Origin: Nostoc punctiforme PCC 73102
GTDB lineage: Bacteria; Cyanobacteriota; Cyanobacteriia; Cyanobacteriales; Nostocaceae
Reading direction: 5' to 3'
DNA length: 32,000 bases
Assembly: GCF_000020025.1 (NCBI RefSeq)
Contig: NC_010628.1
Span: forward strand, 4,620,001-4,652,000
In this document: positions 4,042-30,100 of the stretch, piece after piece
How positions within the stretch are numbered: the first letter of the stretch is position 1
How the letters are laid out: every line of letters starts with the position of its first letter
The notes under the pieces: generated by a model
Told to the model about the DNA's origin: nothing
Databases searched by the model: none
Seen by the model: the letters and a program-made list of their open reading frames with translations, nothing else
Position numbers and translations under genes: made by a program

Positions 4042-5622
4042 ATGGCTAATACATGTGTAATTCATCAGCAAGCACCACCAGAACGTGTACCGCTAAGAAC
4101 CTGGATTGGTGTATTAGCCAGTATGCTTGGGGCATTTATGGCGGTATTAGATATTCAAATAACTAATGCTTCACTGCAAGATATTCAAGCAAGTTTAGGA
4201 GCAACTTTAGAAGAAGGCTCTTGGATTTCTACCGCTTATTTAGTAGCAGAGATTGTGGTAATTCCTTTAACAGGATGGTTATCACGGGTGTTTTCTCTGC
4301 AACGTTATCTGTTAGTGAATACTGCACTATTTATTTTCTTTTCTATATGCTGTGCTTGGTCGTGGAATCTCAATTCCATGATTTTATTTCGCGCCTTACA
4401 AGGTTTTAGTGGAGGAGTCTTAATTCCTACCGCTATGACAGTTGTATTAACGACTTTACCCCAATCTAAGCAATCAGTTGGGCTGGCTGCTTTTGGCTTT
4501 AGTGCAGTGTTTGCACCATCAATTGGCCCAACATTAGGAGGTTGGTTAACAGAAAATTTTGGTTGGGAATACAACTTTTATATAAATGTAATTCCAGGCG
4601 CATTAATGCTAGCTGGAGTTTGGTACGGAATTAAACAAGAAAAACCCCAAATTAATTTACTGAAACAAGGTGATTGGTGGGGAATTATTGCAATGGCTAT
4701 TGGGTTAGGCTCCCTACAAGTTGTTCTAGAAGAAGGTAGCCGCAAAGATTGGTTTAGTTCAGCGCTGATTGTACGCTTAAGTGCGATCGCAGTAATTTTT
4801 CTGGCGATATTTTTCTTTATAGAATTAACTCGTAAGCAACCATTTATTAATTTACGACTTGTGTTTAGGCGGAACTTTGGTTTAGCCAGTATTGTTAATG
4901 TGTCCCTGGGGGTGGGATTGTATGGTTCAATTTATATTCTACCGTTGTATCTTGCCCAAATTCAAAAATACAATGCGCTACAAATTGGTGAAGTATTAAT
5001 TTGGGCTGGTATTCCTCAACTTTTTATTATTCCACTCATCCCTAAATTGATGCAACGCATTGATGTACGGTTAATGGTAGCTGTTGGCGTAACGTTGTTT
5101 TCCATCAGTGCATTTATGAACTCTGGAATGACTAATCAAACTGGATTAGATCAGTTACGCTGGTCGCAATTTGTGCGTGCAATGGGACAACCCCTAATTA
5201 TGGTACCGCTAACTTCTATCGCTACTGCTGGATTGAGTCCAAAAGAAGCAGGTTCAGCAAGTGGTTTATTTAATATGATGCGGAATATGGGCGGTTCTAT
5301 AGGAATTGCATCTTTAGCAACTTTATTAACTAACAGAGAGCAATTTCACTCAAATAGATTGGGTGATGGAATATCTTTATATAACCCAGAAACTCAACAG
5401 CGAATTGACCAAATGACACAGTATTTTGTCAGCAAAGGAGCAGATTTGAGTACCGCACAAAATCAAGCGATCGCATCCATATCTAATATAGTCCGCCGGG
5501 AAGCTTATGTAATGGCTTTTAACGATTGTTTCTACTTTATTGGCATTGCATTATTACTCAGTGGACTTGCCGTTTTATTCTTCAAAAAGGTGAAGCCAAG
5601 TGGTAATGCTGTCGCTCATTAG
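4042..5622 (+). CDS. DHA2-type (EmrB/QacA, 14-TMS) MFS drug:H+ antiporter
   Basis: 526 aa. The N-terminus resembles EmrB (FMAVLDIQITNASLQDIQASLGATLEEGSWISTAYLVAEIVVIPLTGWLSRVF). The length fits 14 TM segments. It shares a cluster with an EmrA-like adaptor and marR. Confidence 0.85.
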   Translation: MANTCVIHQQAPPERVPLRTWIGVLASMLGAFMAVLDIQITNASLQDIQASLGATLEEGSWISTAYLVAEIVVIPLTGWLSRVFSLQRYLLVNTALFIFFSICCAWSWNLNSMILFRALQGFSGGVLIPTAMTVVLTTLPQSKQSVGLAAFGFSAVFAPSIGPTLGGWLTENFGWEYNFYINVIPGALMLAGVWYGIKQEKPQINLLKQGDWWGIIAMAIGLGSLQVVLEEGSRKDWFSSALIVRLSAIAVIFLAIFFFIELTRKQPFINLRLVFRRNFGLASIVNVSLGVGLYGSIYILPLYLAQIQKYNALQIGEVLIWAGIPQLFIIPLIPKLMQRIDVRLMVAVGVTLFSISAFMNSGMTNQTGLDQLRWSQFVRAMGQPLIMVPLTSIATAGLSPKEAGSASGLFNMMRNMGGSIGIASLATLLTNREQFHSNRLGDGISLYNPETQQRIDQMTQYFVSKGADLSTAQNQAIASISNIVRREAYVMAFNDCFYFIGIALLLSGLAVLFFKKVKPSGNAVAH

Positions 5623-5670
5623 ATTTGTTGCATCTGTTAAACTGTTTGATAAAACTACTAAGGTACTAAA

Positions 5671-6234
5671 ATGGTCATCAGCCAAAGTGAGTACTATATC
5701 TCTCCACAAGAATATCTAGAAGGCGAGAAAGTAAGTGACATCAAACACGAGTATATTGATGGGCAAGTCTACGCAATGGCAGGGGCAAGTGATGCTCATG
5801 TCACCGTAGTAGGAAATGTGTTTATACTGCTGCGAAACCATCTGCGGGGTAGTGGATGCCGTGTCTACATGGCAGATATGAAAGCACAGATTGATGTGAT
5901 AAATCGCTATTTCTATCCTGATGTCATGGTGACTTGTGATACACGAGATAGAGAGTCTGAATATTTCAAATCCTATCCTTGTTTAATTATCGAAGTACTT
6001 TCTGAGTCAACAGAAGGCTTTGATAGGGGAAAGAAATTCGCTAGTTATCGACATTTAGAATCACTACAAGAGTATGTGCTAATTTCACCAGATCGAATGA
6101 GTGTCGAATGCTTCCGCCGCAATGACCAAGGACAGTGGGTACTTTATCCTTATGAACAAGAACAAGAAGTGCATTTAGCTAGCGTTGATTTTCGGTGTGC
6201 GATCGCCGAAATATATGAAGATGTATTAAGCTGA
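5671..6234 (+). CDS. Uma2-family (DUF820) restriction-endonuclease-like protein
   Basis: 187 aa with characteristic Uma2 blocks (KHEYIDGQVYAMAGAS..H, YPDVMVTCD, PCLIIEVLSEST...D...K...Y). This family is highly expanded in cyanobacteria. Confidence 0.8.
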   Translation: MVISQSEYYISPQEYLEGEKVSDIKHEYIDGQVYAMAGASDAHVTVVGNVFILLRNHLRGSGCRVYMADMKAQIDVINRYFYPDVMVTCDTRDRESEYFKSYPCLIIEVLSESTEGFDRGKKFASYRHLESLQEYVLISPDRMSVECFRRNDQGQWVLYPYEQEQEVHLASVDFRCAIAEIYEDVLS

Positions 6235-15757: not shown

Positions 15758-16264
15758 ATGCCAGATTCTTCTCCTCGGTTTTCTATGATTGAACCTGATG
15801 CTAAAGCACCCACCTTAAAGCGCCTGCGTCAGTTAAGCCGCCTGCTAGATAATGTTATTACCATTCCTGGTACGAAGATTGGTTTTGGTCTAGATCCAAT
15901 TTTAGGACTTATACCTATTGGTGGTGATTTTTTGGGAGTCATGTTTTCTAGCTACATCATCCTAGAAGCAGCGCGGCTGGGTGTCTCTAGAGCCACTTTA
16001 GGCAAAATGGTTGTAAATGTGATCGTTGATGGGTTGGTAGGCACTGTCCCTGTTTTGGGAGACTTTTTTGATTTTGCCTGGAGAGCTAACACTAATAATA
16101 TCAAGCTATTGGAAGAATACTTAAAGTTTCCCAGCGAGCAAAAGAGTGCAGATAGGTTGTTTATTATTGCTCTTTTGGTTGGATTGTTGCTAATATCCAT
16201 TGTTTTAGTAGCATTACCCGTGATCCTAATTAGAATATTCTGGAACGCTTTAACTGGTGGTTAA
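15758..16264 (+). CDS. DUF4112-domain membrane protein
   Basis: 168 aa. Conserved core: LDNVITIPGTKIGFGLDPILGLIPIGGDFLG......LGDFFDFAWRANTNN. A C-terminal TM helix is present. Confidence 0.75.
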   Translation: MPDSSPRFSMIEPDAKAPTLKRLRQLSRLLDNVITIPGTKIGFGLDPILGLIPIGGDFLGVMFSSYIILEAARLGVSRATLGKMVVNVIVDGLVGTVPVLGDFFDFAWRANTNNIKLLEEYLKFPSEQKSADRLFIIALLVGLLLISIVLVALPVILIRIFWNALTGG

Positions 16265-17973: not shown

Positions 17974-19542
17974 CTAAATTCTCACTTCGGAATCTTCCTT
18001 AAGCATATACCAAATACCATCATTCTTTTGACTTAAAATCTGATATTTTTTCTCAACAAATTCTAGCAGATTTGGAAATTTATCTTTAATTATAGCCTGG
18101 GGTTCGTAATCAATAAAAATATAAGGAGGCTTTGATAACTCTAACTGTTTTATAAGTGCTGACCATTGCTCAGATAGAAAATATTCAAGGGCCCAACCAC
18201 GTAGTATCGTTGCTTGAGTCCGACCAGAAAAATAGTAGATAGATGGATCGCCTGCTACATAAATATCACCAATAAGATTTCCTGGTTGAGATATAAAATT
18301 AGCTTCTGAACGAAGAGATGGATATTTGGGTCTAAAGACAGCCTGATATTGCAATCGTGCATCTTCAGTTAAAGCAAAATTATTATTAACCAGAGTAATA
18401 CTTTTTTTTACGAGAGTGAAAGAGAAAGGTAAGAACAATAAAAATACCAGCAAAATAGTTGGAATTCGAGACTTTAATCCTTTTAAGGAATCCCACAATA
18501 TATCTAATCCCTTAGTTGCTAAAATACCTATAGGTACAAATAATAGTAAGTAATGGTATTCCCACAATGCTGTTTCTTGTAAAAGAATAACAGACAAACC
18601 GAAAATGCACCAAACAACAAGTAGCAAAGTCAATATATTCTTAGACTTATACAATGATACATATACTGCAACAGCAGTCATTAAAATTAAAGAATAAAAA
18701 TTCTGTAATAACCATTTCATTCCCAAAACAAAATTAGTCTGATTAAATGCAGCATTAGCAACAATCATTGGTGGATATATAAAAAATGTCTTAAACACTA
18801 TCGCAAAACTATTAACCGAGATAAAGTAGCTGGCAACAACTAAAAGAGGAAATGTAACTCCTATAAAAATTGGGATAAAAATCTCAATGAAGTTTTTTTG
18901 GATAGTGTGGCGTTTTATCAGTATAGAATACATCAATATACTTAGCCATAATGAAACTAATATCACCAGAAATAAGAATTTAAATAGCAGAACAATTCCG
19001 CCTAAAAAGCCTGACATTAAAAGCAGATAAAATCTTTGCTTTCCTTCTTTTTTAAAAGATTTAAAAGTAACCCAAAGACAAAGGAATAAAGGAAAACCGA
19101 CTAGTGCTTCTACTTGAGTCAGATGCCAAGCACCGGAAACAATATAGTAAACGCCAACTGTTAACAAAGGTACTAGACTTGCAATTATCTGATGTCGAAA
19201 ATAGCTTTTTAGAGTCAGCAGCAATATTATCGAAAAAAATACCATGTAAATAAGTTCAAATACATGGATACCAATCTCATTAAAACCAAATAAAGTTCCT
19301 GCTAAAAAATAAAATGAGAAAATCCCTGGTTGTTTAATATCCCAAAAATCCCGATAAAGTACCTTTCCTTGTTGCATCTCCAAAGCACCTAGCCTAAAAA
19401 ATGCTTGATCTCCGTCAAATGGAAAAGGTAAATGTATCAGACCAATAATGACAATAACAATCAAAACTATAAAGTCAATTTTATTTAATTTAGTAATACT
19501 AATCATGAAATTTAAAGTTAGATTTAAGTGACTATTTCGCAA
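17974..19542 (-). CDS. GT-C-fold membrane glycosyltransferase (ArnT/PMT_2-like)
   Basis: 522 aa with more than 10 TM segments. The first-loop acidic motif (FPFDGDQAFF) and YRDFWDIKQPG resemble the D..KPP loop of ArnT/PMT_2 enzymes. A soluble C-terminal domain of about 130 aa follows. The start is TTG at 19542, with AGGA 10 nt upstream; an alternative ATG lies at 19506. Confidence 0.6.
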   Translation of the reverse strand: MRNSHLNLTLNFMISITKLNKIDFIVLIVIVIIGLIHLPFPFDGDQAFFRLGALEMQQGKVLYRDFWDIKQPGIFSFYFLAGTLFGFNEIGIHVFELIYMVFFSIILLLTLKSYFRHQIIASLVPLLTVGVYYIVSGAWHLTQVEALVGFPLFLCLWVTFKSFKKEGKQRFYLLLMSGFLGGIVLLFKFLFLVILVSLWLSILMYSILIKRHTIQKNFIEIFIPIFIGVTFPLLVVASYFISVNSFAIVFKTFFIYPPMIVANAAFNQTNFVLGMKWLLQNFYSLILMTAVAVYVSLYKSKNILTLLLVVWCIFGLSVILLQETALWEYHYLLLFVPIGILATKGLDILWDSLKGLKSRIPTILLVFLLFLPFSFTLVKKSITLVNNNFALTEDARLQYQAVFRPKYPSLRSEANFISQPGNLIGDIYVAGDPSIYYFSGRTQATILRGWALEYFLSEQWSALIKQLELSKPPYIFIDYEPQAIIKDKFPNLLEFVEKKYQILSQKNDGIWYMLKEDSEVRI

Positions 19543-19846
19543 TAGTTAATATCCTAATAAAATAACAAAAATTTCTGTCTTTTTTTATTACTCATAATGA
19601 CTAAAAACTGTAATCAAGAAAGATTATGAGTCTATTGGTACTTAAGTTTATGCTTAACTTTGCTATGTTTTACTACAACTTTTAGAGTTTGCAAATGTTT
19701 GCAGTGCAAGCAAAACTCTATCTTCATATATGATTGCAATAAGTAGGTGGGTATGAAACAATTGAACTATTTAAAGATATAGTATTTTGCAAAGAATTTA
19801 GGTACAAATGCAGAACTCACGCATCAGAGAAAGTTTATACCTCTTG

Positions 19847-20167
19847 CCTTCTCCTAAGGGGAGACGCTAAAAGCGATCTGTCTGTTGCCGTAATGCTGCA
19901 CGATCCTGCCTCAAAACCCGTAGCTCTTTGTACTTCATACAAGAGAAAACTGCTGTAAATAGGTAGGTGCAACGTACTAAACTATTGCTTTGAACAACTA
20001 TGAGTATATCGGTAACTATGTGATGTATATGTGAAGTATTAATGTAGATATAGGCTAATACCCTTGGGTTCTTGATATTTTGCCGACCACTCACTTGCTT
20101 GAATTGGAGGAACCTCTGACCTCGCAGACTAACTAACGCTTTCAGCGTCTCCTCTTTTTAAGGAGGG
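19847..20167. repeat. about 320-bp non-coding element bounded by about 30-bp imperfect inverted repeats (MITE-like)
   Basis: The left end is ccttctcctaaggggagacgctaaaagcg (19847-19875). The right end is cgctttcagcgtctcctctttttaaggaggg (20137-20167). The inner 16 nt (ggagacgctaaaagcg / cgctttcagcgtctcc) are complementary at 15 of 16 positions, and the outer ctcct/aggag blocks also pair. Confidence 0.5.
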
Positions 20168-20243
20168 TTAGGACGACCAAGCCTTAACTAGAACTTATTA
20201 GGATATAGACACAGCACAATAACTTTAAATATAGGAAATACTG

Positions 20244-20429
20244 ATGGAACGTTCAAAATTAATTGCTATTCTTACAGGTGCGATTTCGGTTATTTTGGCG
20301 ATCGCTTACCTGATCTTAGTCCAACTTCTGGACTACCGAGACATGAAACCCGCCCCCATCAGCCAATTTGACCAAGCGCCTGCTATTATTTCTGTTTTTT
20401 GGCAGATTGACAAAATTATCGAAGTGTAA
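20244..20429 (+). CDS. possible small membrane protein (61 aa)
   Basis: One clear TM helix (LIAILTGAISVILAIAYLILVQLL). A HIP1 site lies inside the ORF. A strong hairpin follows 25 nt after the stop. There is no clear Shine-Dalgarno sequence. Confidence 0.4.
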   Translation: MERSKLIAILTGAISVILAIAYLILVQLLDYRDMKPAPISQFDQAPAIISVFWQIDKIIEV

Positions 20430-20454
20430 TTCATATTTTGTTTTGCTGACTTGT

Positions 20455-20478
20455 AGAGACGCAATTGATTGCGTCTCT
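20455..20478. terminator. hairpin element agagacgcaattgattgcgtctct (11-bp stem), same family as 14007-14071 and 8022-8047
   Basis: The stem pairs perfectly except for the central 2 nt. It sits downstream of the 61-aa ORF. No strong T-run follows, so a terminator function is uncertain. Confidence 0.4.
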
Positions 20479-20606
20479 TGTCATTTATGTCAATAAGTAA
20501 AAACTCATGATGATTATTGATCAAACCAACGATAGATTCATAGATAAAAAACAATAGCTATTATTCATTACTCAAATGGTTTGTTATATAAGATTTCTTT
20601 AGAGCA

Positions 20607-20631
20607 TTTATCTCAGATTTGTTTAGATAAA
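20607..20631. promoter_or_regulatory. candidate LysR-type (T-N11-A) dyad: TTTATCT-N11-AGATAAA
   Basis: 7-bp perfect arms (20607-20613 and 20625-20631) with an 11-nt spacer, about 175 nt upstream of ndhF3. A second, weaker dyad AGAT-N11-ATCT lies at 20686-20704. Confidence 0.3.
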
Positions 20632-20803
20632 GTAATTCCTTTTTGACTGATATAACGGTAAGCTGTTTCTAACAAGATTAAATAAAGATAAATTTGTCTG
20701 ATCTGCATAGGCGTAGCCTGTCGTAGATATCTCTGGGTTAACAGGGATCAACGTAAGTTGATTCAAAACCCCAAACTTTTGATGGAAATTTAGAGGTAAG
20801 TTG

Positions 20804-22681
20804 ATGGCTCAGTTTCTACTTGAGACTGTTTGGCTAGTTCCTTGCTATGCCTTAATAGGTGGCTTGTTAGCCGTACCTTGGTCGCCGGGAATTATTCGGA
20901 AAACGGGGCCAAGACCGGCGGGTTACATAAACTTGGTGATGACATTTTTGGCGTTTGTGCATAGTGCGATCGCCTTACAAGCAACTTGGAATCATCCAGC
21001 CCAAGAAGTATTTATTCCTTGGTTATCTACAGCTGGTTTAGACCTCACCATTGCTTTAGAAATATCCTCAGTAAGTGTCGGCGCTTTAGTTGTGATTACT
21101 GGTTTAAATTTGCTGGCGCAGATTTATGCCATCGGTTACATGGAGATGGATTGGGGTTGGGGACGCTTCTATTCCTTATTAGGATTATTTGAAGCAGGAC
21201 TATGTGCCCTGGTTCTATGTAATAACTTGTTCTTCAGCTATGTAATTTTGGAAGTCCTCACACTAGGAACTTACCTACTAGTTGGCTTATGGTTTAGCCA
21301 GCCGTTGGTAGTCTCAGGTGCCAGAGATGCTTTCTTAACCAAGCGGGTGGGAGACTTATTCTTGCTGATGGGCGTGTTGGCATTATGGCCCCTAGCTGGA
21401 ACTTGGAGTTATCCAGAACTAGCTGAGTGGGCGGCGACTGCTAACGTCAACCCGACAACAATGGCACTGGTAGGTTTAGCCTTAATTGCTGGGCCGATGG
21501 GTAAATGTGCCCAGTTCCCTTTGCATCTGTGGTTGGATGAAGCAATGGAAGGCCCAGTTCCCAGTACAATTTTGCGGAATTCGGTAGTAGTTGCTAGTGG
21601 TGCATGGGTGCTGATTAAACTGCAACCTGTGTTAAGCCTGTCGCCCATAGTTTCCTCCGCTATGGTGGGCATTGGGGTAGTGACGGCGGTAGGTGCTTCT
21701 TTAATTGCGATCGCTCAAATTGATCTTAAACGCTGCCAATCCTATTCTGTCAGTGCATACATGGGTTTAGTATTCATCGCTGTGGGAACGCAACAAGATG
21801 AAGCAGCGCTGTTATTAGTACTTACCCATGCTATATCCGCAGCCCTATTGGTGATGAGTACCGGCGGAATTATTTGGAATAGCATCACCCAAGATGTCAC
21901 CCAATTAGGTGGGTTGTGGACACGTCGCCCGATTTCAGCAATAGCCTTTATCGTCGGCACTTTGGGGTTAATTGGTTTTCCACCACTGGGTAGTTTTTGG
22001 GCGCTAGTGAAACTATCAGACGGGTTGTGGGAAACGCAACCTTGGTTAGTGGGAGTAGTGATAACGGTAAATGCTTTGACAGCCGTGAGTTTAACCAGAG
22101 AATTCGGTTTAATTTTTGGTGGTAAAGCTACACAAATGAGTCAGCGATCGCCTGAAGCACACTGGCCGATGATTTTGCCAATGGTAATTCTACTTGGCTT
22201 TAGTCTACATCTTCCTTTAGTGTTGCAAAGCTTATCACTTTTACCCGATTGGGCAACTCTAAATAAAGATGTCGTGCTACTTTTAATTTGGTCAAGTATT
22301 TCCGGTTGCAGCATCACTGGGGTGGTTTATTTAGGGAATATTCCTAAACCAATTCGTCTCCCTTGGAAAGGTCTCCAAGACTTGTTTGCATACGACTTTT
22401 ATACCCCCAAACTCTATCGGATAACCATTATTTTTGGCGTTGCCAAGATTTCCCAACTTGCCGATATGATTGACCGCTTTGTTGTCGATGGCATCGTTAA
22501 TTTGGTTGGTTTATTTTCGCTATTAGGTGGCGAAAGTTTAAAATACAGCACCTCTGGACAAACCCAATTTTACGCCTTAACTGTCTTAATAGGAGTGAGC
22601 ATTTTAGGAATGTGGGTAGCTTGGCCATTTTGGGGTGTGCAGTTTTTAAATTTGATTTTTCCAATTTCGACAGTTGGTTAG
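20804..22681 (+). CDS. ndhF3: NDH-1MS subunit NdhF3 (CO2-uptake NAD(P)H-quinone oxidoreductase subunit F3)
   Basis: About 625 aa, with many TM segments of the NuoL/NdhF antiporter-like type (GKCAQFPLHLWLDEAMEGPVPSTILRNS). It lies in a cluster with ndhD3 and cupA. The ATG at 20804 is preferred over the TTG at 20801, and GAGGT lies 9 nt upstream of the ATG. Confidence 0.85.
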   Translation: MAQFLLETVWLVPCYALIGGLLAVPWSPGIIRKTGPRPAGYINLVMTFLAFVHSAIALQATWNHPAQEVFIPWLSTAGLDLTIALEISSVSVGALVVITGLNLLAQIYAIGYMEMDWGWGRFYSLLGLFEAGLCALVLCNNLFFSYVILEVLTLGTYLLVGLWFSQPLVVSGARDAFLTKRVGDLFLLMGVLALWPLAGTWSYPELAEWAATANVNPTTMALVGLALIAGPMGKCAQFPLHLWLDEAMEGPVPSTILRNSVVVASGAWVLIKLQPVLSLSPIVSSAMVGIGVVTAVGASLIAIAQIDLKRCQSYSVSAYMGLVFIAVGTQQDEAALLLVLTHAISAALLVMSTGGIIWNSITQDVTQLGGLWTRRPISAIAFIVGTLGLIGFPPLGSFWALVKLSDGLWETQPWLVGVVITVNALTAVSLTREFGLIFGGKATQMSQRSPEAHWPMILPMVILLGFSLHLPLVLQSLSLLPDWATLNKDVVLLLIWSSISGCSITGVVYLGNIPKPIRLPWKGLQDLFAYDFYTPKLYRITIIFGVAKISQLADMIDRFVVDGIVNLVGLFSLLGGESLKYSTSGQTQFYALTVLIGVSILGMWVAWPFWGVQFLNLIFPISTVG

Positions 22682-22735
22682 TTGAATACCGTTTTATTAC
22701 AAACAAGCAGACATTAATATTGTGAGGAGAATTCC

Positions 22736-23458
22736 ATGAGCATACAACATCCAAAAATTAATCTTTCCAGAAGAAGTTTATTCAAGTTTGGTGCAGGTGC
22801 CATCGGTACGGGTGTACTCACAGTTGGACTTGGCTCAAATTTACTTGCAGCCGAAAAAACCCCAGCAGCGCCAGCAGAAAATGATATTACCCCCGATAAG
22901 GCATTGCAAGAGTTATTAGATGGGAATGAAAGATTTGTCAAAGCAAAACGTCGCAATCCCAACCAAAGCCATTCACGTTTAGTTGAAGTTGCCAAAGGTC
23001 AAAAGCCCTTTGCCTCTGTTTTAGGATGTGCAGATTCACGAGTGCCTTCAGAGATTGTTTTTGACCAAGGACTTGGAGATTTATTTGTTTGCCGCGTAGC
23101 TGGTAATATTGCCACACGAGAAGAAATTGGTAGCCTAGAATTTGGCAGCTTAGTATTAGGCACTAAAGTCATCATGGTAGTGGGACATGAAAGATGTGGT
23201 GCGGTAGGTGCTGCTATTAAAGGCGCTCAAGTCCCAGGGCAAATTGGAAGTTTGCTTGAAGCAATTCAACCAAGTGTAGAAAGTACCAAAGGAAAATCAG
23301 GAGATAAGTTAGAAAATGTCTGTAAAGCAAATATTTTAGCGCAAGTTGGAAAATTGAAGTCATCGTCAGTTTTATCTGAATTAATCAAGGCAGAAAAACT
23401 GAAAATAATTGGTGGTTATTACGATTTAGATACTGGCAGAATCAGTTTAGTAAGTTAG
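22736..23458 (+). CDS. beta-class carbonic anhydrase with twin-arginine (Tat) signal peptide (EcaB-like)
   Basis: 240 aa. The N-terminus has NLSRRSLFKFGAGAIGTGVLTV (an S-R-R-x-F/L-x-K Tat motif plus an h-region, likely cleaved near LLA-AE). The beta-CA zinc and catalytic motifs are intact (GCADSRV and VVGHERCGAV). A GAGGAG Shine-Dalgarno sequence lies 5 nt upstream. Confidence 0.8.
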   Translation: MSIQHPKINLSRRSLFKFGAGAIGTGVLTVGLGSNLLAAEKTPAAPAENDITPDKALQELLDGNERFVKAKRRNPNQSHSRLVEVAKGQKPFASVLGCADSRVPSEIVFDQGLGDLFVCRVAGNIATREEIGSLEFGSLVLGTKVIMVVGHERCGAVGAAIKGAQVPGQIGSLLEAIQPSVESTKGKSGDKLENVCKANILAQVGKLKSSSVLSELIKAEKLKIIGGYYDLDTGRISLVS

Positions 23459-23462
23459 CTTT

Positions 23463-23512
23463 TTTGTCCTTTGTCATTAGTCATTGGTCATTACTAACGC
23501 ACAAAGGACAAA
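23463..23512 (+). promoter_or_regulatory. intra-operon hairpin (12-bp perfect stem) whose loop carries three STRR heptamers
   Basis: tttgtcctttgt (23463-23474) pairs with acaaaggacaaa (23501-23512). The loop contains gtcatta gtcattg gtcatta (23473-23493, overlapping the end of the left arm). A second direct copy of acaaaggacaaa lies at 23529-23540, 4 nt before the ndhD3 ATG. Confidence 0.6.
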
Positions 23513-23544
23513 TAATAAAGGAGAAATAACAAAGGACAAATATA

Positions 23545-25041
23545 ATGTTAAGTGTTTTAATTTGGCTCCCTATTTTAGCCGCCGCTATTATAGCAATATT
23601 ACCTGTAAGTTTCCCTAATCATCGCATTCGTCTAACAGCATTAATTTTTTCTGGAACAGTTCTTGCCTGGAACCTATTTATCCTGCTAAAATTTGATATC
23701 AGCAATCCAACGATGCAATTTAAAGAGTATTTGCCCTGGAATGAAACCCTTGGTTTGAGCTATCAAATAGGTGTTGATGGGCTTTCTATCTTAATGTTGG
23801 TGTTAAATAGCCTACTCACCTGGATTTCGATTTATAGCAGCAATAAAGAAACTGAACGCCCCAGGCTATTCTACTCGATGATTTTATTAGTGAGTGGAGG
23901 GGTTGCAGGTGCTTTTTTAGCGGAGAATTTGCTGCTCTTCTTCCTATTCTACGAACTAGAATTAATCCCCTTCTACTTACTAATTTCCATTTGGGGAGGG
24001 GCAAAACGGGGTTATGCTGGGATTAAATTCCTGATTTATACGGCGGTTTCAGGAGCATTAATTCTGGCGACATTCTTGGGTATGGTGTGGCTGAGTGGTT
24101 CTACCAATTTTGCTTTTGATGCAGTCTCTACAGAAAATCTGTCAACAGCAAAACAAATCCTTTTACTAGCAGGAATAGTCTTAGGTTTTGGTATTAAAAT
24201 TCCCTTGGTTCCCTTCCATACTTGGCTACCCGATGCTTATGTTGAAGCTTCAGCACCAATTGCTATTCTTCTTGGTGGTGTGTTAGCAAAACTGGGAACT
24301 TATGGACTGCTACGATTTGGATTGGGTATGTTTCCTCATGCTTGGAGTATTATTGCACCGACTCTGGCAATTTGGGGAGCAATCAGCGCTATCTATGGGG
24401 CGGTAATTGCGATCGCTCAAACAGATATCAAGCGCATGGTAGCATACAGTTCCGTCGGTCACATGGGTTATATCTTGCTAGCTGGTGCGGCTAGTACTCC
24501 CTTAGCACTCGTTGGTGCAGTCGCCCAAATGTTTAGTCACGGTATCATCCTGGCAATTCTCTTCCACTTGGTGGGAGTCGTGGAAGCCAAAGTTGGCACT
24601 CGCGAGTTAGATAAACTCAATGGTTTAATGAGTCCCATACGCGGTTTACCCCTAATTAGCGCCTTACTAGTCTTAAGTGGGATGGCTAGCGCAGGTATTC
24701 CCGGTTTAACAGGATTTATCGCGGAATTTATTGTCTTTCAAGGTAGTTTCTCTGCCTTCCCCATCCCGACTATTTTGTGTATAGTGGCTAGTGGATTAAC
24801 CGCAGTTTATTTTCTCATCCTCCTCAACCGCACCTGTTTTGGCAGACTCGATAACTTTGCCTACTATCCCAAAGTTCTTTGGTCTGAAAAAATCCCAGCT
24901 TTAATTTTGGCAGCTTTCATCATCTTTTTGGGAGTACAACCCACTTGGTTAGTACGTTGGAGTGAATCTACAACTACAACAATGGTCGCTGCAATTCCCC
25001 CTTTAGAAAAAACCGTAATCTCTGAAGTAGCGCTGAAGTAA
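23545..25041 (+). CDS. ndhD3: NDH-1MS subunit NdhD3 (CO2-uptake NAD(P)H-quinone oxidoreductase chain 4 paralogue)
   Basis: 498 aa of the NuoM/NdhD antiporter-like type (FGIKIPLVPFHTWLPDAYVEASAPIAILLGGVLAKLGTYGLLRF). It lies between ndhF3 and cupA. Confidence 0.85.
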   Translation: MLSVLIWLPILAAAIIAILPVSFPNHRIRLTALIFSGTVLAWNLFILLKFDISNPTMQFKEYLPWNETLGLSYQIGVDGLSILMLVLNSLLTWISIYSSNKETERPRLFYSMILLVSGGVAGAFLAENLLLFFLFYELELIPFYLLISIWGGAKRGYAGIKFLIYTAVSGALILATFLGMVWLSGSTNFAFDAVSTENLSTAKQILLLAGIVLGFGIKIPLVPFHTWLPDAYVEASAPIAILLGGVLAKLGTYGLLRFGLGMFPHAWSIIAPTLAIWGAISAIYGAVIAIAQTDIKRMVAYSSVGHMGYILLAGAASTPLALVGAVAQMFSHGIILAILFHLVGVVEAKVGTRELDKLNGLMSPIRGLPLISALLVLSGMASAGIPGLTGFIAEFIVFQGSFSAFPIPTILCIVASGLTAVYFLILLNRTCFGRLDNFAYYPKVLWSEKIPALILAAFIIFLGVQPTWLVRWSESTTTTMVAAIPPLEKTVISEVALK

Positions 25042-25082
25042 TAAATTTAGAGAGTTACGCATCGATACAGGAGGAAGAAAGG

Positions 25083-25673
25083 ATGAATTTCACATTAATT
25101 CCCAGTGGTCTTGTTTTATTTCGTTTTTTAATATCTCCATTCCTCCTATTAGATGCCTTGGATGGCAAAACCAGTATTTGGTTCATCGTCGGTTTTGTCG
25201 CAGCCTTTCTCTCAGATATTTTTGATGGCATTATTGCGCGACGATTAGGTGTCAGCACTGCCCAATTGCGCCAAGCCGATAGTTGGGCTGATGTCTGCCT
25301 TTTTAGCTGTATCTTCGTGAGTGCGTGGATAGTTCATCAAGATATTCTCGTTACTTATAGCGTCCCTTTGCTAATGATTGTTTTTGCTCAATTGCTGTGG
25401 TGGGTGGTGAATTTAGTGAAATATGGTAAACCCGCTAGCTATCACACCTACTCTGCAAAATTTTGGGGAATCACCCTTTTTATTGCCATTATTGCCTTAT
25501 TTGGCTTTGATTACGCCGGAGTTGCCTTATGGCTGACTTGTATTGCTGGTACAATTCACAGCGTCGAAGAAATTGCTATGACGCTAATATTGCCAGTTTG
25601 GACACATGATGTTTTAAGCATTTTTCATGCCTTGAATATTCGTCAAGAATCACTAACACCAATTACTAAATAA
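25083..25673 (+). CDS. CDP-alcohol phosphatidyltransferase-like integral membrane protein
   Basis: 196 aa, about 5-6 TM segments. The motif DIFDGIIARRLGVSTAQLRQADSWAD fits D-x2-D-G-x2-A-R...D-x3-D, except that the conserved Gly position holds Leu. An AGGAGG Shine-Dalgarno sequence lies upstream. The stop TAA (25671-25673) is 1 nt from the cupA ATG. Confidence 0.55.
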   Translation: MNFTLIPSGLVLFRFLISPFLLLDALDGKTSIWFIVGFVAAFLSDIFDGIIARRLGVSTAQLRQADSWADVCLFSCIFVSAWIVHQDILVTYSVPLLMIVFAQLLWWVVNLVKYGKPASYHTYSAKFWGITLFIAIIALFGFDYAGVALWLTCIAGTIHSVEEIAMTLILPVWTHDVLSIFHALNIRQESLTPITK

Positions 25674-25674
25674 T

Positions 25675-26982
25675 ATGACAGCAATTAAAACAGCAATTAA
25701 ATTACCTCCTTCAACGCACGAATTTGCTGATGTAATTCATCGCTTAGAAGCAGGCGGTGCAATGTTACCCGATACTCCAGAAAATTTGATGCAAATCATC
25801 GGTTTATATAAAGCTTATGCTGTACCGATGGATTTTTACTGGCGTGACCTGCTTTATATTGCTGAAAACGAGTTTTTAAACCCGGTTCCTTTCTTTAAAT
25901 ACTTCTTACCCAAAGAATATTTAGAACTGCATAATCACTATGCTGGCGATGATGCCGATTTACGTATTTGGCGCGGCGAAGCTACTGCACATCCAGAACT
26001 TTTGGCATTTATGGAAAAGGGTGAAACTTTCAAAATGCCAAAGTTATTGCATCACTTGTTCCACGATCGCATTAACATGGAGTTTGCTGAAGCTTGTATG
26101 CGGGCGATGTTATGGCATAGAGGGATGGGTGGACAATTTGACCCTTACCTAGATTCAGACGAATACAAAGCCAACGCTGACCGAGCAATTAAAGCTTATT
26201 TCCAACGGAACCCAGTAATGCTGGGGCTTTACAAGCTGTTCCCCGATATGTTTTTGGAACAGTGCCGCCAGATGTCATACTACGCTAATCTGGGCTTATT
26301 CTGGGAAGTCATGGCCCCGGTATTCTTTGAAATGTCAGACCGCTATGACGAAGGTACCATTAGCACCGTCCCAGAGGCAATGAGCTTCTTAGTTAATGGT
26401 ATATTTGCGATCGCAGGTCGTCCCATTTACCATCACGTTTATATTCGTGGCGAATGCTACGAAATTATCCCTAAATCAAAGGGTTTCATGTGGCTATACG
26501 AAGCCGCATTACCTTACGTAGAAGCTGTTTTCTACCGTACCGCACCCTTCCGGGGGACAAAATCTTATAATGCTCAAGCGCGTCAAGTACCGGAAGACCA
26601 AAAAGATTTTCACTATGGTATTCTTTACGCTGATGTATTTCCAGTCGGTACTGCTGGCATTCCTCCGACATTATTAATGCAAGATATGTTGCATTTTTTG
26701 CCACCATATCTTGTTAATTACTACAGCCAACATTGCCGGGGTGAAGAAGATATGTTGATTCAGTTGGGAGTAAGTTTTCAACGGTCAATGTACTGTGTCA
26801 CTTCTGCGGTAATTCAAGCTTTGCGAACTGCACTTTTATATCCATTAGATGACCAAAATCCCAAGCATTTACAAGCAAATCGAGATTTTTTTGAAATGCA
26901 GCTAAATCGCTTTACTCGACCAGACTATAATATTCGTGATGCTGCTCGTTTAGGGAGTATTCAAAAGCAAGATTATAGATAA
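25675..26982 (+). CDS. cupA: CO2 hydration protein CupA/ChpY
   Basis: 435 aa with ChpXY-family sequence blocks (GAMLPDTPENLMQIIGLYKAYAVPMDFYWRDLLYIAE, HHLFHDRINMEFAEACMRAMLWHRG, GIPPTLLMQDMLHFLPPYL). It lies adjacent to ndhF3 and ndhD3. Confidence 0.9.
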   Translation: MTAIKTAIKLPPSTHEFADVIHRLEAGGAMLPDTPENLMQIIGLYKAYAVPMDFYWRDLLYIAENEFLNPVPFFKYFLPKEYLELHNHYAGDDADLRIWRGEATAHPELLAFMEKGETFKMPKLLHHLFHDRINMEFAEACMRAMLWHRGMGGQFDPYLDSDEYKANADRAIKAYFQRNPVMLGLYKLFPDMFLEQCRQMSYYANLGLFWEVMAPVFFEMSDRYDEGTISTVPEAMSFLVNGIFAIAGRPIYHHVYIRGECYEIIPKSKGFMWLYEAALPYVEAVFYRTAPFRGTKSYNAQARQVPEDQKDFHYGILYADVFPVGTAGIPPTLLMQDMLHFLPPYLVNYYSQHCRGEEDMLIQLGVSFQRSMYCVTSAVIQALRTALLYPLDDQNPKHLQANRDFFEMQLNRFTRPDYNIRDAARLGSIQKQDYR

Positions 26983-26994
26983 GAGATCCCCCAA

Positions 26995-27022
26995 CCCCCC
27001 TTAAGAAGGGGGGCTTTTTTTT
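26995..27022 (+). terminator. intrinsic terminator of the cup operon
   Basis: cccccc (26995-27000), loop ttaagaa, gggggg (27008-27013), then c plus T8 (27015-27022). It begins 13 nt after the cupA stop. Confidence 0.8.
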
Positions 27023-27099
27023 GTGAATTACAATAAGTTTAATTTCTTCAGTGGCAATACTATAAATAAAATTAGACACTCAAATTCCCCTCTTTTTAA

Positions 27100-27123
27100 G
27101 GCTACGGTGTATACACCGTAGCC
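27100..27123. repeat. perfect 24-bp palindrome GGCTACGGTGTATACACCGTAGCC, followed by T5; a third half-copy lies at 27170-27185
   Basis: All 12 base pairs were checked by hand. A 16-nt identical half (tgtatacaccgtagcc) recurs at 27170-27185. The flanks gagatccccc (26983-26992) and gggggatctc (27131-27140) are reverse complements of each other. Confidence 0.85.
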
Positions 27124-27192
27124 TTTTTAGGGGGGATCTCAACGCTGTGGGAAAACTCTAAAAAACTTATGTATACACCGTAGCCATAATTC

Positions 27193-30100
27193 TTATAAAC
27201 CAGATAATACTCCTGCAATACTCGTCAATTCCATAATTTTCTCAAACTGGAAATTATGAGCCAAATTCTGAATAAAATTGCTCAACGTAGCATTTTCTGA
27301 AGGAATTTGTTCAATCAATTCTAAAATTAAGTCATCACTACATTGGGCTGCGGCAGTATACACCTGTTTCACCCATTCAGGCGACATTTCAGACAATAGA
27401 GGAACTAAATCTGTAAGCTTCAAGATTGATTCTGTTATTTGTTGGTTTGCATTTTTTATCTGATAGTTATCTTCTTGATAAATATATTTAACTTCTAAAT
27501 ATTCGCTCAATTTTTTTAATAATTCTTCTTCACGGAAAGGCTTGTTAATATAATCATCACAACCAGCTTTGATTGTTGCCTCTCGCTGTTCTTCAAAGGC
27601 GTTAGCGGTTAAGGCGATAATAATCGTCTTGCGATTTGGGATTGAAGTTTCTTCTCTAGCTTTAATAATTTTGGTGGCTTCGTAGCCGTCCATAATTGGC
27701 ATCCGCATATCCATAAAAATTAGGTGTGGTTGCCATTGTTGCCAAAGTGCGATCGCTTCCGTGCCATTTGCCGCTTCCTGGACTGCAAAACCAATAGATG
27801 TCAAGATTTTTACTAACACTAAACGGCTGTCTATAGAGTCATCAACCACCAAGATGCGGTATTCGTTTTGAGCAGGTGCTAAACTCAGAACTTGCCGTCT
27901 AATTTGTTGGATCTGGATTTCGCTGGCTGCGGCTAGATCAATTTGAATATCAAAGGCAAATGTACTTCCCTCACCAATAATGCTAGTCACGCTAATATCT
28001 CCGCCCATTAGTTCCACATATTTGCGGCTAATTGCTAAACCTAGTCCTGTTCCTTGTTGCGATTTTCTACCGGTTTCAGTTTGTCCAAACGCTTCAAACA
28101 GTAAGTTAATTTCCTGTGGCGCAATACCGCGACCAGTGTCTGTAACCTCGAAGAAGAGATGAGGAGGATGAGGTAAAATTTTCTCCCCCATATTCTCCAT
28201 TGCCACCCGTAACATAACTCTTCCAGTATCGGTAAATTTGATTGCATTTCCCAAGAGGTTAAGCAATACTTGACGCAGTTTACTTTCATCAGCTTGGATA
28301 TACTGCGGAAGGTAAGATGTATATTCAAAATTTAATTCTAAGCCTTTGGAAGTGGCGCGGAAACGCAACATCTCTTCGAGGTTTTCTAAGAGGCGAATTA
28401 AGTCAAAACTGTTGAGATTTAATGTTATTCTGCCGGCTTCAATTTTAGACATTTCCAGAATGTCGTTGATTAAGTTGAGGAGATGTTCGCCAGCACGATT
28501 GATGATTGCTAGATTTTGCTGATGTTCAGTAGATAAAGCCCGATCGTGGCTCATGATTTGGGTAAAACCGAGGATGGCGTTGAGTGGGGTACGCAGTTCG
28601 TGGCTCATGTTGGCGAGGAATTCGCTTTTGGCGCGGTTGGCAGCATCAGCTGTAATCACAGCTTCTTGCAATGCTTGTGACTGCCTTTGAGTCTGCGCCA
28701 GTAATTGTGCTTGCTGTAAAGCCACACCCAACTGATTGCCAATTTGAACTACAATGTTGATTTCTCCTGGTTTCCATTGGCGGGAATCAGAATTTTGATA
28801 ACTCGCTAGTAATCCCCAAATCTGACTACCATATAAAATGGGGACAATGATATAAGCTTTTGCCTGAAAGCGTTCTAAAAGGCTGATGTAAGAGGGATGA
28901 AACTCAGCATTGTAAATGTCTGGGACGCAGCGAAAAGTTGCGCCTTGTGCGTAAATGCCATCTTGAATTGCTTGCATATCAGCATCTTCCGCTTGATTAT
29001 CCCCACTATCCAAAATTTTTGCTAGGCAACGTCCTTGTTGTAAGACACCTTCTGTGAGATTAGGATCGTTGTTATGTTCTTCTATCAGAGAAATCCAACC
29101 ATTACCCACAGACTCAGAGACGAATTCGCCATTCCATTGAGGATTGAAACGATAAACAACAACCCGATCGCAATTGAGTACTTGCCGTAATTCTTGGGTT
29201 GTAGCTGCAAATATAGTCTCTAAATCCAATGTTTGGCGCATCCTTTGAATCACTTGGGCGATCGCTCTTTCCCGTTCTGCACTCTCACGCAGCGCTTCTT
29301 CTGCCAATTTTCTCTCGGTAATATCTGTAATCGTACCGATATAACCTTTTATTTCTCCATCATCTCGAAATTCTGGCAAAGCCTGACAAATTACCCAGAC
29401 AACTGTACTATCATCACACAAAAAGCGATGTTCGTACTTATACATAACTTTAGCAACTCTTGCTTGATTCCATGTCAACAATAGCTGCTCGCGATCGTCT
29501 GGATGTACGGCTTTTGTCCAACCGGTTCCCAGAGACTCTTCTAAATTGCATCCACTAATCTCACTCCAGCGTTGATTAAAATATAAGACATTACCATCCA
29601 CATCAGTGTGAAATATACAAGCTGGGGAGGTTTCTGCTAGCAGTTGATATCGCTGCCGACCTGTTTGTAAAGCTAATTCTGCCAGTTTAGCATCGTTGAT
29701 GTCTGTCCAATAACCGACACATTCTATAGGATTTCCAGTTTCGTCACGAATTAACCTCATCTTTTCGTAAAACCAGTGATAAGTTCCGTCAGCGTGTAAC
29801 CACCGATATTCGTAGGAAGTGTACTCTTGCTCAACCAGCTGGGAAAATTTTTCTGAAATCAGTTCAATATCTTCTGGGTGGACGTGATGCAGCCAGAAAT
29901 TAGGATTTTCGACAAATTCCTGCGCTTCGTAACCAACCATTGCCTTAACGTTCTTACTAATAAAGGTAGTGCTAAAATTGCCTAATGTTTTTTTGCTGCT
30001 ATAAATCACCACAGGGCTAGAAGTAAGCAGATATTGAAGGCGCTCGTTAGCTAAACGTAGTTCTTGTTCGACATGTTTGCGTTCGCGTAGCGCGGCTTGC

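Follow-up and report, generated by a model that had tools for sequence, protein, structure and literature searches.

A 32,000-nt stretch of the Nostoc punctiforme PCC 73102 genome (contig NC_010628.1, positions 4,620,001 to 4,652,000 of the forward strand; hereafter the window, to which all positions refer unless another locus is named) harbours five consecutive + strand genes at 20804-26982: ndhF3, a beta-carbonic anhydrase (beta-CA) gene, ndhD3, a reading frame that we call ORF4, and cupA. Our analysis suggests, with a probability that we put at about 0.6, that they form the inducible NDH-1MS operon in an ancient long form, ndhF3-ecaB-ndhD3-ORF4-cupA, whose two additional genes are losable accessories and not new core subunits. 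NDH-1MS holds a central place in the CO2-concentrating mechanism of cyanobacteria, and efforts to engineer carbon uptake into crops have it among their targets; the location of its active site, and whether the carbonic anhydrase EcaB truly works with the complex, are open questions in the field. The NDH-1MS operon itself and EcaB as a partner are already known. What is new is the PgsA-like accessory gene, together with the position of ecaB within the operon, which we have not found described.

A sequence-only reading of this DNA had proposed an undescribed variant of the CO2-hydration module with two new components. The part concerning ORF4 stands in so far as the gene is undescribed; our literature search returned no paper joining ndhF3, cupA and the CDP-alcohol phosphotransferase family, and no equivalent of ORF4. 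The part concerning the carbonic anhydrase has to be given up as a novelty, because the protein is by sequence an EcaB homologue and an interaction of EcaB with CupA and CupB has already been reported.

Core genes, inserts and their gain and loss

The subfamily models for NdhF3, NdhD3 and CupA were all passed. The antiporter-like subunit NdhF3 (20804-22681, +) scored 1030 bits with TIGR01960 ndhF3_CO2 (cut-off 589) and matched PF00662 and PF00361, the antiporter-like subunit NdhD3 (23545-25041, +) scored 917 bits with NF005611 (cut-off 764) and matched PF00361, and the CO2-hydration protein CupA (ChpY; 25675-26982, +) scored 769 bits with TIGR01964 (cut-off 294) and 554 bits with PF10216. Together with the grouping of these genes on one strand, this identifies an NDH-1MS CO2-uptake operon. 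At the interface, NdhF3 has the residues R37, Y41 and E114 that line the CupA/NdhF3 site, and CupA conserves H127, R132 and E136, the counterparts of H130, R135 and E139 in Thermosynechococcus. In the open reading frame listing ndhF3 begins at a TTG (20801), but relatives conserve the ATG at 20804, which has a GAGG 7-8 nt upstream; this ATG is therefore the true start, as the sequence-only reading had it.

The inserted genes encode an EcaB-type beta-CA with a twin-arginine translocation (Tat) leader (22736-23458, +; PF00484, 134 bits) and a 196-aa, six-helix, PgsA-like CDP-alcohol phosphotransferase of an uncharacterised subfamily (ORF4, 25083-25673, +; PF01066, 61.4 bits, cut-off 22), so that the family assignments first made for both frames hold. 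Reading the sequence directly, we recovered the five same-strand frames and all four spacers given earlier: 54 nt for ndhF3/beta-CA, 86 nt for beta-CA/ndhD3, 41 nt for ndhD3/ORF4 and 1 nt for ORF4/cupA. The Shine-Dalgarno sequences and stop/start coupling on which that description leaned are also in place, with GAGGAG before the beta-CA gene, AGGAGG before ORF4, and TAA-T-ATG at the junction of the ORF4 stop with the cupA start. Compared with the known ndhF3-ndhD3-cupA(-cupS-cupAR) operon of the NDH-1S module (Synechocystis sll1732-sll1736; PCC 7120 alr4156-alr4158), the core genes, their order and the CupA/NdhF3 interface residues are alike. The extras differ: the known operon carries cupS and cupAR as co-transcribed additions, whereas in N. 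punctiforme ecaB and ORF4 are interleaved with the core genes, and neither cupS nor cupAR follows cupA.

A CupA-anchored scan of species-representative genomes gave at least 570 loci, of which we took the best 80, all with a CupA identity of at least 85%. They are mostly from Nostocales, with some from Oscillatoria, Stenomitos, Leptolyngbyaceae, Gloeocapsopsis and Limnoraphis, and the frequencies of operon forms are weighted toward Nostocales as a result of this selection. Mapping the window proteins onto these loci revealed four forms among the 74 that were complete: ndhF3-CA-ndhD3-cupA (42 loci), the plain ndhF3-ndhD3-cupA (17), the five-gene form (10) and ndhF3-ndhD3-ORF4-cupA (5). A beta-CA gene stands between ndhF3 and ndhD3 in 52 of them, and an intact ORF4 between ndhD3 and cupA in 15. 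The same arrangement is found again in many genomes, which belong to several orders of cyanobacteria, and so is not due to chance. For example, the five-gene order is also found in Mastigocladus laminosus and Microcoleus FACHB-672, Kamptonema has the ORF4-only form, and from Nostocales to Oscillatoriales neither insert changes its place or orientation.

These data bear on whether the two proteins could be core subunits of the module. All four operon forms are represented in close relatives, and losses of each insert are recurrent, which speaks against such a role. The strict co-occurrence expected of an NDH-1MS subunit is not seen, the inserts being missing from many intact operons and ORF4 occurring also unlinked; the association that the synteny survey does bear out is the conserved position of insertion across orders, while the inserts are not strictly tied to the core genes. 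Remnants of ORF4 are left between ndhD3 and cupA at L023, L035, L037, L038 and L062, and L116 has an internally deleted copy. The complete genome of N. flagelliforme, in turn, has a clean ndhF3-ecaB-ndhD3-cupA operon. L035 (Nostoc sp. CCY 9925, 5173-6207) lacks ndhD3, and there the first half of the beta-CA gene runs straight into the second half of ORF4; either ~2.4 kb has been deleted, which would put the operon out of action, or the assembly is at fault.

In sequence identity both inserts keep pace with the genes on either side, which argues for vertical descent. Between Nostoc and Microcoleus/Kamptonema, ORF4 is 70-74% identical, NdhF3 and NdhD3 being lower at 65-70%. Both inserts are under purifying selection, with ratios of non-synonymous to synonymous substitution rates (dN/dS) of 0.08-0.17 for ORF4 and 0.13-0.32 for the beta-CA, compared with 0.04-0.12 for ndhF3 and ndhD3 and 0.03-0.08 for cupA. 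The picture, as far as comparison of sequences can draw it, is of an ancient long operon that would have undergone many independent losses of each insert. An association of the insertions with loss of cupS, which had also been envisaged, is not borne out: cupS is absent 3' of cupA in every Nostocales locus examined, regardless of the inserts, and it follows cupA only in two plain-form loci, both outside Nostocales, so that the inserts are uncorrelated with its loss. PCC 7120 has the plain operon alr4156-4158, with cupS encoded elsewhere (PMC7699953).

The EcaB-type carbonic anhydrase

Judged by its sequence, the beta-CA is a homologue of EcaB, nearer to Slr0051 than to CcaA. BLASTP aligned it with Synechocystis EcaB/Slr0051 over 232 aa, of which 48% are identical (214 bits, E 3e-74), and the twin-arginine leaders fall in register; the Slr0051 query was taken from the PDF supplement of a paper and has small gaps from optical character recognition. 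The closest solved structure, M. tuberculosis Rv3588c, scored 128 bits. Only 43 bits were obtained with Synechocystis CcaA (PDB 5SWC), against the 214 bits to EcaB, ruling out a carboxysomal CcaA. The catalytic motifs CADSR (aa 98-102) and HERCG (aa 151-155) keep the Cys, His and Cys zinc ligands and the Asp-Arg dyad intact.

The leader reads SRRSLFK at aa 11-17, followed by the hydrophobic stretch GAGAIGTGVLTVGLG, and motif evidence places the probable cleavage after NLLA. SRRxL[LF]K, CADSR and HxxCG are kept in 19 of the 19 operon-embedded copies examined. This strict conservation of the twin-arginine leader agrees with the prediction that the enzyme is exported, and suggests that it acts on the far side of the membrane. 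The Nostocales copies are without a lipobox cysteine, and hence they are predicted to be soluble once exported. Two Oscillatoria copies (L048 and L056), which contain a repeated VSEPTKGAVSE linker, have an LGC lipobox after the Tat motif and for this reason are predicted to be Tat lipoproteins.

Compared with Slr0051, the N. punctiforme protein is alike in sequence, twin-arginine leader and both catalytic motifs, and unlike in gene position, lying here within the cup operon; Synechocystis ecaB (slr0051), judged from gene identifiers, is outside it. EcaB has been described as mostly thylakoid-associated and partly periplasmic, as interacting with CupA and CupB, and as upregulated under low inorganic carbon (PMC10096703), and ecaB as scattered in the genomes of one comparative study (PMC9120777). 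Our literature search found no paper noting ecaB inside the ndhF3 operon. Its embedding there across many filamentous cyanobacteria provides independent genomic evidence for the contested link between EcaB and NDH-1MS, and the universally conserved Tat leader constrains where EcaB can act.

In the mechanism that we propose for the long operon, a single transcript, induced by low CO2, would start at a promoter 5' of ndhF3 and end at the terminator that follows cupA. The model for this is PCC 7120, in which ndhF3, ndhD3 and cupA (alr4156-4158) are induced by a CO2 step-down (PMC7699953). The EcaB-type enzyme would be exported via Tat to the periplasm or the thylakoid lumen and there speed the interconversion of HCO3- and CO2, so that the CO2 drawn by NDH-1MS is replenished; CO2 would then cross the membrane or pass through the gas tunnel proposed for NdhF3, and CupA would trap it as HCO3- in the cytoplasm. 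The simplest role for EcaB would be to hold the CO2/HCO3- equilibrium in the periplasm, replacing the CO2 that NDH-1MS removes. Alternatively, the enzyme may be lumenal and act at the NdhF3 tunnel, whose proposed opening is toward the lumen (bioRxiv 10.64898/2026.08.03.742399).

ORF4 and its wider family

On the evidence of its signature and modelled fold, ORF4 looks like an active PgsA-like enzyme, although no equivalog model assigns its specificity. It departs from the full PF01066 signature, D-x2-D-G-x2-A-R-x8-G-x3-D-x3-D, at the second Gly, reading D45-x2-D48-G-x2-A-R-x8-L62-R-x2-D66-x3-D70. In a profile alignment this motif coincides exactly with the signature of PSS and PgsA, except that [L/M/I]-Arg stands where they have the second Gly. 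The ORF4 clade is 64-100% identical across orders; D45, D48, G49, A52, R53, D66 and D70 are invariant within it, as is LRQADSWAD, and KPASYHTYSAK, EEIAMTL and LPxWxHD are family-specific blocks. Around this clade lies a broader uncharacterised subfamily (469 clusters at 50% identity with E <= 1e-10), throughout which the four Asp, the first Gly, Ala-Arg, H121, K126, P171, W173 and D176 persist. The position of Leu62 is L, M or I subfamily-wide and is followed by a near-invariant Arg, a substitution that may or may not affect catalysis. A profile search for more distant relatives of ORF4 brought back the same cyanobacterial clade.

The AlphaFold2 (AF2) model of ORF4 (pLDDT 73.5) has six transmembrane helices. 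Its best Foldseek match, over nearly the full length, is S. aureus PgsA (7DRJ; probability 1.0, TM ~0.53-0.55), and the top 23 PDB matches are all CDP-OH transferases. A direct sequence search against the PDB found nothing at E <= 1, the solved structures being reached only by profile and fold search. ORF4 resembles S. aureus PgsA (7DRJ/7DRK) in size, in the six-helix fold, in the position of DxxDGxxAR...DxxxD and in a similar N-terminal helix with P-x2-L-x3-R-x4-P. It differs in being only 21-23% identical, in having Leu-Arg for the second Gly, and in its own blocks KPASYHTYSAK and LPxWxHD.

A housekeeping PgsA, PssA or cardiolipin synthase is ruled out by the equivalog scores, which were 19.2 bits for PgsA (TIGR00560, cut-off 109.1), 18.9 for PssA (TIGR00473, cut-off 107) and 20.2 for ClsA (NF053678, cut-off 240), and by the absence of ORF4 from related Nostoc. 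The Nostoc matches of 94-100% identity to ORF4 include none from N. commune, N. flagelliforme or N. sphaeroides, although the beta-CAs of these three were recovered from the same database, and most Nostoc operons are without ORF4; since close relatives do without ORF4, it is not the essential housekeeping PgsA. Some more distant members of the subfamily are longer proteins. P0335 (540 aa) combines the domain with a fatty-acid desaturase (PF00487) and P0372 combines it with Lcl_C, and several members of 340-390 aa have C-terminal extensions without a family match. As a clue to the function of ORF4 such fusions were set aside, one desaturase and one Lcl_C fusion being too thin a basis.

Sampling ORF4 genes without reference to cupA, we found members of the clade in about 18 independent contexts between ndhD3 and cupA. 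Linkage to cup genes is limited to the cyanobacterial ORF4 clade, and ndhD3/cupA is its only recurrent neighbour, the unlinked copies having no other neighbour in common. In one metagenomic locus (L088, 629-7621) an ORF4 orthologue of 74% identity lies 1.4 kb 3' of an ndhF-ndhD cluster with a ChpXY gene of 376 aa, the size expected for CupB, with exbB and exbD on the other strand in between. A 149-aa frame coupled to the unlinked ORF4 of Aphanothece was rejected as a CupS or a conserved partner, as it has no family match and does not accompany the other unlinked copies.

Could ORF4 have given up catalysis and serve instead as a subunit or assembly chaperone of NdhD3, NdhF3 and CupA, which binds or hands over a lipid and is translationally coupled to CupA? 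CupAR (Sll1736) offers a precedent, being an extra co-transcribed member of the cup operon and a small membrane protein that binds NdhD3 and NdhF3 (PMC11456788). Like ORF4, CupAR is an accessory membrane protein encoded in the operon of the NDH-1S genes, but it has 127 aa, two transmembrane helices and no CDP-OH domain and is encoded 3' of cupS, whereas ORF4 has 196 aa, six transmembrane helices and an enzyme-like character and lies 5' of cupA; judged by size and architecture they are not homologous. A non-catalytic role would agree with the Leu in place of the second signature Gly, with the motifs peculiar to the family, and with the 1-nt stop/start spacing to cupA in the N. punctiforme clade and the 11-nt overlap in L043 and L044. 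This tight coupling is not conserved, the spacing being 26-131 nt in other lineages, and ORF4 has been lost many times. Moreover, the four Asp, the first Gly and Ala-Arg are invariant over several hundred clusters, mostly outside cup operons, and such subfamily-wide invariance of catalytic residues argues for conserved catalysis. We therefore consider a purely structural ORF4 quite improbable.

The reading of ORF4 as an active enzyme accessory to NDH-1MS draws a concrete prediction from structural work. In Thermosynechococcus, phosphatidylglycerol (PG) is reported as fully resolved at the CupB-NdhF4 interface, where it was termed a "molecular bolt" and takes the position that in CupA-NdhF3 had been attributed to the catalytic zinc (bioRxiv 10.64898/2026.08.03.742399). 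The residues named above for NdhF3 and CupA of N. punctiforme are the counterparts of this site. A lipid at the Cup-NdhF interface suggests a testable role for ORF4, the supply or loading of an anionic phospholipid during assembly. We postulate, as the weakest step of our mechanism, that ORF4 could make an anionic phospholipid, such as PG phosphate or something closely related, at the place where NdhD3, NdhF3 and CupA enter the membrane, and that this lipid would support the assembly or stability of the module. ORF4 might even be the dedicated synthase or loader of a phospholipid bolt at CupA-NdhF3, with EcaB in the lumen making CO2 from HCO3- at the mouth of the NdhF3 tunnel. We hold this combined version to be improbable; were it true, an enzyme would be providing the CO2-hydration module with a lipid as cofactor, and the operon would encode a two-sided CO2-handling machine.

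Several observations weigh against the two genes being functional accessories of NDH-1MS. First, both are dispensable and have been lost in many lineages. On a rough neighbour-joining tree of concatenated NdhF3, NdhD3 and CupA, the minimum number of changes by Fitch parsimony is 9 for the beta-CA and 16 for ORF4, and ORF4 is reconstructed as present at the root; ORF4 remnants or decayed copies are seen at six loci, and the N. flagelliforme operon is intact without the gene. Second, five ORF4 orthologues unlinked to cup genes are equally conserved, and relatives at 43-55% identity to ORF4 occur in housekeeping contexts. Third, the activity and location of EcaB are contested (PMC9865033), and a Tat-exported enzyme is hard to square with direct contact to cytoplasmic CupA. 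Fourth, the substrates of ORF4 may differ from those of PgsA because of its Leu-Arg in place of the second Gly and the failure of all characterised equivalog models. PG, moreover, is abundant in thylakoids and is the product of the housekeeping PgsA, so that it is hard to see why a dedicated synthase should be needed. Lastly, it was with CupB-NdhF4 of Thermosynechococcus that PG was seen, and the study is a preprint.

Much of this would be readily understood if ecaB and ORF4 were co-regulated passengers that are useful at low CO2, neither acting on or with NDH-1MS; the exported carbonic anhydrase could then, for instance, assist bicarbonate transporters or contribute to pH homeostasis, with ORF4 taking a share in general membrane remodelling. 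Both genes have been lost independently and often without loss of ndhF3, ndhD3 or cupA, ORF4 orthologues stay conserved when unlinked, the wider subfamily has its housekeeping contexts, and the place of Synechocystis ecaB outside the cup operon points the same way. Mere passengers would hardly be expected, on the other hand, to hold identical insertion positions across orders or, in the case of the ORF4 clade, to have ndhD3/cupA as sole recurrent neighbour; the unlinked copy that adjoins a cluster with a CupB-sized ChpXY gene, the published interaction of EcaB with CupA and CupB, and the presence of PG at the Cup-NdhF interface also count against this explanation, which we regard as plausible but rather doubtful. 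Whichever holds, ORF4 is strongly conserved and unstudied, in an operon that ranks among the best studied of cyanobacteria. Both ideas, an EcaB that works with NDH-1MS and a lipid-supplying ORF4, are directly testable, because N. punctiforme is genetically tractable and close relatives have operons that naturally lack ORF4 or ecaB.

Transcription signals and flanking features

The spacers, leader and terminator distribution fit a single transcription unit, a fit that is not proof. The region of the operon is bounded 5' by a hairpin at 20455-20478 (+; 10-bp stem, from the terminator scan), whose sequence is kept in many Nostoc loci and which closes the upstream unit, a hydrophobic 61-aa frame (20245-20430) directly 5' of the operon. 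An equivalent 61-aa gene is annotated ahead of ndhF3 in N. flagelliforme (L122, 3483-3668). Beyond the hairpin, multi-locus alignment defines a conserved putative promoter and 5' leader of ndhF3 at 20500-20803 (+). The ~220 nt 5' of ndhF3 hold long blocks conserved from Nostoc to Tolypothrix and Mastigocladus (alignment of 340 nt from 15 loci), among them CATAGATAAAAA-CAATAG-TATTATT, TATATAAGATTT, TAACGGTAAGCT and AACAAGATTAAA, with a GAGG Shine-Dalgarno sequence before the ATG. A simple pattern search upstream of ndhF3 for an NdhR-type operator (ATAG-N6-10-CTAT) gave none, and an Rfam search of the window returned no match. The leader also contains ATAGGCGTAGCCTGTCGTAGATAT at 20706-20735, which is present only in some Nostoc loci (the window, L005, L006, L013 and L036), is expanded in L020 and is missing from otherwise collinear leaders; it resembles a small mobile insertion.

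At the other end, the putative intrinsic terminator of the operon lies at 26995-27022 (+), where CCCCCCTTAAGAAGGGGGG is followed by a T-run. Its stem (26995-27013; 8 bp, six of them G-C pairs, then T8), just 3' of cupA, is the best-scoring terminator-like site in 19400-27400, in agreement with the sequence-only view that the only convincing terminator follows cupA. The total of terminator-like matches in this interval, 9 versus 8.0 +/- 2.5 expected, is not above chance. Among related loci, a terminator-like hairpin occurs within 150 nt after cupA in 35 of 83, and the beta-CA/ndhD3 spacer is terminator-like in 1 of 55.

In the window the beta-CA/ndhD3 spacer does contain a hairpin, at 23463-23512 (+; dG -18.3 kcal/mol, z -3.4). 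On closer inspection its loop (23474-23500) consists of the tandem heptamers GTCATTA, GTCATTG and GTCATTA, with two occurrences of ACAAAGGACAAAT just downstream, and no U-tract follows. The long, repeat-filled loop and the missing U-tract rule it out as a canonical internal terminator. Such structure could nevertheless mark a processing site, and either this or internal promoters would leave the five genes as something other than one operon, their adjacency being historical. The z-score, the variable length of this spacer among relatives (41 to 438 nt, often strongly structured) and the promoter-like hexamers found throughout the region would suit that explanation, the hexamers being at chance-expected frequency. 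We judge it highly improbable in view of the rarity of terminator-like internal spacers relative to those after cupA, the short spacers with their Shine-Dalgarno sequences, a gene order conserved across orders, and the finding that the only long conserved non-coding block of the operon is the one upstream of ndhF3.

The genes flanking the five-gene block are unrelated to carbon uptake. The 24 nt at 27100-27123, between cupA and a convergent histidine-kinase gene, form a perfect palindrome, GGCTACGGTGTATACACCGTAGCC, which has TTTTTA after it and a partial second copy 70 nt further on (27171-27186); it may be the terminator of the histidine-kinase gene or a dispersed repeat. Upstream of the operon, the - strand gene at 17974-19542 encodes a polytopic membrane protein of 522 aa without a Pfam match and lies in a low-GC stretch (31-32%, versus ~42% nearby); N. 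flagelliforme (L122) has a similar 504-aa gene, also without a Pfam match, at the equivalent position. A DUF4112 gene is found in the window at 15758-16264, ~4.5 kb 5' of the operon, and in the Hapalosiphonaceae loci L065, L070, L074 and L085 a DUF4112 gene stands directly 3' of cupA (10256-10657 in L085).

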